A stretch of DNA of 326 nucleotides from Escherichia coli (GCF_003334255.1 NZ_QOWU01000262.1), one strand, 5' to 3'; counted from the stretch's first letter, positions 1-326 are shown. Translations and numbers: made by a program. Notes: generated by a model not told the origin, from the sequence alone.

Positions 1-326
1 TACCTCTCCCGTTTACTCAGTTGTTCAGGCAGATGGTGAAGCAGCTCACCGTTGCCGCAGTAAATGGCGGCATGGTTCGGTACCGAAGCACCAAAGCAGC
101 ACAGCAGAATATCGCCCGCCTGTGCAGAGGACAGGGGCACCCGGTAAAAGCCGGTGACCGCCATATTGTCCAGGTAAAGGTTCTGACCGTTGCGCCACCA
201 GTCATCCTCGCGATGAAAATCCGGCATTTCAGTCCCCGCCAGATGATAAGCATCCCGGAACAGCGTGTAACAGTCCGTCACCCCGTGCTCAAAGCGCCGT
301 CCTGTCAGATGTGGCACACAGCGGAA
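1..326 (-). CDS. K: Internal fragment (5' and 3' ends both outside the window) of a phage lambda gpK-like tail tip assembly protein, covering the NlpC/P60 peptidase-like domain
   Basis: Seen in sequence: the reverse-complement frame with codons at + 326..324 (F) through + 5..3 (R) has 108 sense codons and no stop; the other minus-strand frame in the track stops at 17..19, and the + strand frames I translated stop at 37..39 and 155..157. Translation contains ...EHGVTDCYTLFRDAYH... and ...SVPNHAAIYCGNGELLHH..., matching the Cys and His-His arrangement of NlpC/P60 papain-like peptidases. Established knowledge (recalled, not searched): this closely resembles the C-terminal half of lambda gpK, which has an N-terminal JAB/MPN domain and a C-terminal NlpC/P60 domain. 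The trailing 2 nt (+ 2..1, 'ta' on the coding strand) begin the next codon, so the gene continues below position 1; its start lies above position 326. Confidence 0.87.

Follow-up and report, generated by a model that had tools for sequence, protein, structure and literature searches.

A 326-nucleotide stretch of Escherichia coli DNA internal to a lambda gpK-like tail tip assembly gene, and the open reading frames that compete with it

Phage lambda gpK is needed for tail assembly (PMC12617516). A JAB plus NlpC/P60 architecture has been described for 'TAPK' by Iyer, Burroughs and Aravind, who predicted a role for it in processing the N-terminal, ubiquitin-like domain of gpI, the product of the adjacent gene, and reported that some K versions retain the NlpC/P60 domain alone (PMC1779556). 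Mass spectrometry and cryo-EM of lambda virions did not detect gpK, and gpI was resolved in the particles only at residues about 134-223 (PMC10721106, PMC12617516), given as 135-223 in PMC10721106. [quoted passage not shown] Searching the literature for a primary publication on the cleavage of gpI by gpK, we found only this conference summary. A similar factor, PA0639, has been described for the F-pyocin of P. aeruginosa: it is missing from mature particles, and tip-less tubes form when it is deleted (bioRxiv 10.64898/2026.02.24.707460). Its gene holds the equivalent place in the tail-tip block. PA0639 differs in serving a tailocin rather than a phage, and it is likened to gpK here from its description rather than from its sequence.

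Here we analysed a stretch of E. coli DNA 326 nucleotides in length with a G+C content of 57%, referred to below as the window. Our reading, to which we give a probability of roughly 0.93, is that the window represents 326 bp from the interior of gene K, encoding part of a two-peptidase tail tip assembly factor. The identity of the gene itself, as K of a lambda-like E. coli phage or prophage, is close to certain. The K copy in question is already known and extremely common, and the finding is an ordinary one.

With the default threshold of 60 amino acids, ORF listing returned a single ORF of 78 amino acids on the minus strand at 17..253, in agreement with the first-pass annotation, and lowering the threshold to at least 20 amino acids added two further smaller ORFs. 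A different minus-strand frame, read in codons from 326..324 down to 5..3 (the K frame), contains no stop among its 108 codons, as the first-pass annotation had also claimed. Its translation begins with FRCVPHLTGRRFEHGVTDCYTLFRDAYHLAG and ends with HHLPEQLSKRER, and the full 108-residue product is FRCVPHLTGRRFEHGVTDCYTLFRDAYHLAGTEMPDFHREDDWWRNGQNLYLDNMAVTGFYRVPLSSAQAGDILLCCFGASVPNHAAIYCGNGELLHHLPEQLSKRER. The K frame is absent from the ORF listing because the lister requires stop codons on both sides and omits ORFs reaching either end of the window, a rule that agrees with the reason the first-pass annotation had offered. A second fully open frame, which that annotation lacked, runs on the plus strand from base 3 as the in-register antisense of K. 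Among 5000 dinucleotide-preserving shuffles of the window, one or more frames were fully open in 832 (17%), and the particular frame of K was open in 103 (2%). Given that 17% of the shuffles carry some fully open frame, openness alone is weak evidence, and the coding status of the K frame is decided by homology and selection, beyond chance openness. Searches of both strands against Rfam at E ≤ 1 found no RNA families, and the PADLOC defence models matched neither of the two open frames.

At the DNA level, the window is 100% identical to 13 phage records in which the gene is labelled 'phage tail assembly protein' or 'tail tip assembly protein K'; these comprise PPompW-type prophages of Shiga-toxin-producing E. 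coli (STEC), vB_EcoS-569R3, -705R7 and -783R2, and PhiR5_1. Of 5426 complete E. coli genomes, 4278 carry a match to the window DNA, at a median of 2 copies each, and 877 records are at least 99% identical to the window, the gene being annotated there as 'C40 family peptidase'. Many E. coli prophages are defective. Architecture and synteny were read from loci whose DNA is 100% identical to the window, plus relatives. In the PhiR5_1 locus (L001), the K coding sequence occupies 2695..3438 and encodes 247 amino acids, and the window corresponds to 3001..3326 in the same frame with 100% DNA identity. The window translation equals residues 103-210 of this protein, again with 100% identity, so that the minus strand of the window (1..326) spans K codons 103-210 at bases 326..3 and ends two bases into codon 211. 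It begins 306 nucleotides past the K start codon and ends 112 nucleotides short of the end of the gene, both in PhiR5_1 and in an identical E. coli prophage, leaving the start and stop codons outside; the earlier statement that the window lies wholly within K is thus borne out at both loci. Gene order is H-M-L-K-I-J in two loci with 100% identity to the window, PhiR5_1 and the prophage of E. coli CFSAN061761, and the same order is found in lambda and ev207.

Family and domain searches, which the first-pass annotation had put forward as the way to check its assignment, placed the fragment in PHROG phrog_30 'minor tail protein' with E = 5.7e-70 and matched residues 9-102 of the fragment to Pfam NLPC_P60 with E = 1.8e-10 (41.2 bits). 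The likeness to lambda K that it had recognised is also clear, with 89% amino acid identity over 108 of 108 residues and 85% DNA identity over the window to lambda gpK (NP_040598, 'C40 family peptidase'); over its full length, the homolog that contains the window shares 87% identity with the 247-amino-acid K of resequenced lambda. As in lambda, K lies between L and I, combines JAB with NlpC/P60 and has the same active-site residues, and the K of the window represents an allelic variant relative to lambda, of the type found in PPompW-type STEC prophages and PhiR5_1. Salmonella phage ES18 gp27 is a more distant counterpart, with the same two domains in an L-like, K-like, I-like and J-like synteny and with all catalytic residues kept, although it is only 46% identical to the window-carrying homolog. 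Sequence similarity, JAB plus NlpC/P60 architecture and position in the L-K-I-J order all place the gene in the gpK/TAPK family.

Selection was examined in 44 distinct ungapped 326-nucleotide segments, 84-100% identical, drawn from 90 loci; a first scan for related loci had yielded only relatives of 95-100% identity, and the divergent sequences came from annotated phage records. The K frame is open in all 44 segments, and variable columns fall at codon positions 1, 2 and 3 of this frame 18, 11 and 64 times, respectively. We calculated dN/dS by the Nei-Gojobori method for the window versus lambda and as medians over 316 pairs at least 8% divergent. The K frame gave 0.074 against lambda and a median of 0.107. 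By contrast, the values (against lambda, then median) were 1.6 and 1.6 for the +1 frame that holds the 78-amino-acid ORF, 2.8 and 2.8 for the +2 frame, and 2.2 and 1.7 for the in-register antisense frame. Purifying selection is therefore acting on the K frame. The first-pass annotation had named as its own refutation a K frame closed by a stop just outside the window while the frame of 17..253 continued as a longer conserved gene. Instead, the K frame extends openly on both sides in every full-length homolog, and the 17..253 frame has neither a family match nor a dN/dS below about 1.6.

While the assignment to K stands, its scope has to be narrowed, because, of the two domains of the protein, JAB and NlpC/P60, the window covers the NlpC/P60 half only. 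In the full-length homolog carrying the window, Prok-JAB covers residues 3-105 and NLPC_P60 residues 111-224 (E = 1e-12), and precomputed Pfam assignments give the same pair in most of 120 homologs among the matches listed. The first codons of the window (303..326, minus strand) encode K residues 103-110 (FRCVPHLT), corresponding to the end of the JAB/JAMM domain, as placed by the Prok-JAB match, and to the inter-domain linker; a strand at E99-103 forms the final JAB element in the AlphaFold2 model. The remainder (3..302, minus strand) encodes K residues 111-210, the core of an NlpC/P60 domain (MEROPS C40, papain-like) according to Pfam NLPC_P60, AlphaFold2 and Foldseek, and in the full protein this domain runs to about residue 224, past the end of the window.

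To assess active-site conservation, 1.84 billion representative proteins were searched without a profile, yielding 2776 relatives, and 91 full-length ones with 32-58% identity were aligned. The predicted nucleophile Cys121 (codon TGT at 270..272, minus strand), in the motif GVTDCYTLF, is a cysteine in 90 of 91 homologs, and the preceding Asp120 is present in all 91. The predicted catalytic histidine, His187 (codon CAT at 72..74, minus strand) in the motif VPNHAAIY, is found in 90 of 91, while the predicted third member of the triad, His199 (codon CAC at 36..38, minus strand), lies 12 residues further on and is kept in 91 of 91; the adjacent His200 occurs in 86. The whole predicted Cys121-His187-His199 triad is thus encoded within the window, and C121, H187 and H199 follow the order of cysteine, histidine and then polar histidine typical of NlpC/P60 (Pfam PF00877). 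The zinc-site motif of JAB/JAMM metalloisopeptidases (Pfam PF14464), E...HxH...S..D, which lies outside the window, is also present in the full-length homolog: E19 is conserved in 90 of 91 homologs, H68, H70 and D81 in 91 of 91 each, and S78 in 86, with threonine in the other five.

An AlphaFold2 model built on the 91-homolog alignment had a mean pLDDT of 97.4, and as modelled K adopts papain-like and JAMM folds. Foldseek searches of the PDB, with matches at 11-23% identity, paired the N-terminal half of the model with the JAMM deubiquitinases P. furiosus JAMM1 (PfJAMM1), AMSH, CSN5 and Rpn11, and the C-terminal half with MepS/Spr, 7v6s/7v6t/7v6u and the catalytic domains of the C. difficile Acd autolysin at a probability of 1.00. 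These relatives were reached by fold search only, a PDB sequence search with the 108-residue fragment returning nothing at E ≤ 0.001, and neither the sequence nor the fold search found a gpK structure in the PDB. MepS/Spr and the other C40 murein endopeptidases share the papain-like fold with K (Foldseek probability 1.00, target-normalised TM-score 0.55-0.67) and a Cys-His-His triad that is likewise predicted in K. In Spr the triad is C68/H119/H131, with a His-His spacing of 12 residues, the same as in K. However, sequence identity is only 18-22% and, unlike these enzymes, K lacks both a signal peptide and a lipobox, carries a fused JAB domain, belongs to a tail-assembly operon and likely acts on a protein substrate.

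Combining this architecture with the published work on lambda, we propose that K would serve as a cytoplasmic, non-structural two-peptidase maturation protease and assembly factor of the tail tip. [quoted passage not shown] The cleavage of the ubiquitin-like domain would probably be performed by the JAB domain, with the NlpC/P60 domain probably being either an active second peptidase or a substrate-binding module directed to an intracellular tail-tip protein. The description of the gene product as 'structural/assembly' in the first-pass annotation is accordingly kept for assembly and dropped for structure, since gpK was undetected in virions. Because PMC12908700 is silent on NlpC/P60, we infer the role of the window-encoded part only from triad conservation. 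The near-invariant triad, as read from the alignment, supports an NlpC/P60 domain capable of activity, and whether its specific role is that of an enzyme active on a protein substrate we put at about even odds.

The NlpC/P60 domain could also be an independent second tail-maturation protease, for which the cleavage of gpH into gpH* and gpHC is a candidate reaction, its catalyst having been left open in PMC12617516. Such a reading fits the near-invariance of the triad across the 91 distant homologs and the K versions that carry NlpC/P60 alone (PMC1779556), but we consider it improbable; if true, it would be a trait of the whole gpK family and nothing specific to the window.

Somewhat less probable still is that the NlpC/P60 domain hydrolyses peptidoglycan during infection or lysis and is not an intracellular assembly protease. 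A cell-wall role would also fit the structures closest to the C-terminal half, namely the murein endopeptidase MepS/Spr and clostridial autolysins, and the names given to the protein, 'C40 family peptidase' in RefSeq and 'cell wall-associated NlpC family hydrolase' in some sources. Several observations argue against it. gpK was not detected in lambda virions (PMC10721106, PMC12617516), and the defect of K mutants and of the F-pyocin homolog mutant lies at tail-tip assembly rather than in entry (PMC12617516; bioRxiv 10.64898/2026.02.24.707460). A protein substrate is suggested by the fusion to JAB and by the neighbouring ubiquitin-like gpI (PMC1779556). In addition, the N-terminus of K, MTQTESAILAHARRCAPAESCGF, shows by inspection no hydrophobic signal sequence, and the protein should therefore remain in the cytoplasm. 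Membership in the NCBIfam model TIGR02219 (phage_NlpC_fam, putative phage cell wall peptidase) was rejected because the match reached only 20.4 bits against a cut-off of 81.9, a shortfall that may partly reflect the scoring of a fragment only. The cytoplasmic assembly factor with two peptidase domains is the function we retain for K. The gpK family is well characterised, and it is the question of the NlpC/P60 substrate that would hold moderate interest for specialists in phage assembly; the K copy of the window brings no new biology and adds nothing on this substrate.

The two other frames could in principle be genes in their own right. For the 78-amino-acid ORF at 17..253, which lies on the minus strand in the +1 frame of K, the status of a genuine overlapping gene within K might be suggested by an ORF of the same length at the same position in lambda (L002 1512..1748) and by its being unbroken in 43 of the 44 distinct homologous segments, the exception being ev243. 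However, only 5 of 163 K-synonymous single-base changes are able to break this ORF, so its retention in 43 of 44 segments is expected, and among 53 observed synonymous variant alleles 1.6 breaks were expected while 1 was observed. Furthermore, a stop-free run of at least this length arises in the same frame in 13-15% of synonymous recodings of K. Amino acid identity to the lambda counterpart is 64% for this ORF versus 89% for K, its dN/dS of about 1.6 lies far above that of K, it has no PHROG or NCBIfam match, and its product is rich in Cys, Arg and Thr and lacks recognisable features. As a real gene it was ruled out by dN/dS and the codon-recoding null, leaving it a very small probability, and it is judged non-coding, a by-product of the sequence and codon usage of K.

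The weakest candidate is the plus-strand frame at 3..326 in register with K: although it is stop-free over 108 codons, forms part of a 223-amino-acid ORF opposite K in the PhiR5_1 locus (L001 2710..3381, minus) and matches phrog_25447 ('unknown function') with E = 1.5e-10, it remains open when codons are permuted within the fragment (100% of cases) or drawn from the pool used by the homologs (69%), is open in just 37 of the 44 homologs, has a dN/dS of 1.7-2.2, would oppose the direction of the late operon and is annotated in 0 of the 8 annotated records inspected, and a real gene of phrog_25447 at this position, the least probable reading of all, was ruled out by dN/dS and the codon-recoding null. 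The lack of TTA, CTA and TCA codons in this part of K accounts for the openness of the frame, which is judged a non-coding shadow ORF, produced like the 78-amino-acid ORF by the sequence and codon usage of K. The match to phrog_25447 is most simply explained by the 223-amino-acid shadow ORF sometimes being called as a gene, and the family, most simply a set of miscalled shadow ORFs, may consist of such antisense calls.

More generally, short windows cut inside genes defeat start-to-stop ORF listing, and a spurious out-of-frame or antisense ORF may then become the sole feature reported. Such by-products may look conserved without being under selection, as with the 78-amino-acid ORF, whose presence in lambda and in 43 of 44 homologs is what the synonymous-change test leads one to expect.

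The end of the window proximal to gene I probably has a second function. The sequence GGGAGAGGT at 2..10 (minus strand), within the K codons for R-E-R, is predicted to be the Shine-Dalgarno sequence of gene I, and this segment would then probably double as the ribosome-binding site of the overlapping downstream gene. The putative start ATG of I lies 10 nucleotides past the window edge and 103 nucleotides inside K, the sequence at this site being GGGAGAGGTATTCCGAAAAATGG, and both the motif and the ATG are kept in 18 of 18 distinct segments. In the lambda record OM418627, a ribosome_binding_site for I is annotated at the equivalent of window 2..6, and the Pfam Lambda_tail_I domain starts at residue 15 of the ORF beginning at this upstream ATG. 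On these sequence features, gene I probably begins at the ATG inside K. The PhiR5_1 and PGAP annotations place the start of I at a GTG overlapping the K stop (L001 3435; ATG region 3317..3338), and such a start would result in the loss of about 19 residues of the ubiquitin-like domain. Within the 103-nucleotide K/I overlap (L001 3336..3438), 15 columns vary among the 18 distinct segments, a small sample in which 8 fall at the third position of I versus 5 at the third position of K, a distribution that hints at the ubiquitin-like N-terminus of I being the more constrained frame.

Annotation of K differs among the records inspected. One base is missing from the lambda reference of 1982 (J02459/NC_001416) at about position 1267 of the locus L002 (13000-16000), at GCCGGAGG-CTATTTCC, as judged against ev207, PhiR5_1, ev243 and 813R6. 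Owing to this missing base, the first 46 codons of K, including the one for the JAMM Glu, lie in another frame, and K is annotated as 199 amino acids from an internal ATG. Only J02459, NC_001416, OR474059 and OR974322 share the missing base, while two independently sequenced lambda genomes examined (PV340536 and LC730321) possess it and encode an intact K of 247 amino acids; the one-base lack probably reflects a mistake in the reference or a mutation specific to the strain, and it is carried over into papers in which gpK is numbered as a protein of 199 amino acids. The window lies downstream of this difference.

In 813R6 and ev243 (L084 and L086), K is annotated from internal starts, as 199 or 223 amino acids, despite the presence of the base that restores the 247-amino-acid frame. 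The Stx2-converting phage 1717 (NC_011357; L087 1201..1782) aligns to the window with a 1-nucleotide gap (327 versus 326 nucleotides, 94.5% identity); its K coding sequence is annotated as 193 amino acids and is directly preceded by an anti-repressor gene in place of L, and this K may be frameshifted or rearranged. Some database proteins (P0022, P0026, P0028, P0037, P0043 and others) carry a K-like part fused to L (PF05100) or I (PF06805) domains. They are mostly singletons from single contigs, and could be either real fusions, as in Iyer et al. (PMC1779556), or artefacts of frameshift or assembly. Split genes were also seen elsewhere in the block: the tape-measure gene H is divided into two coding sequences in PhiR5_1 (L001 1..1660), and L is divided likewise in vB_EcoS-813R6 (L084 488..1190).
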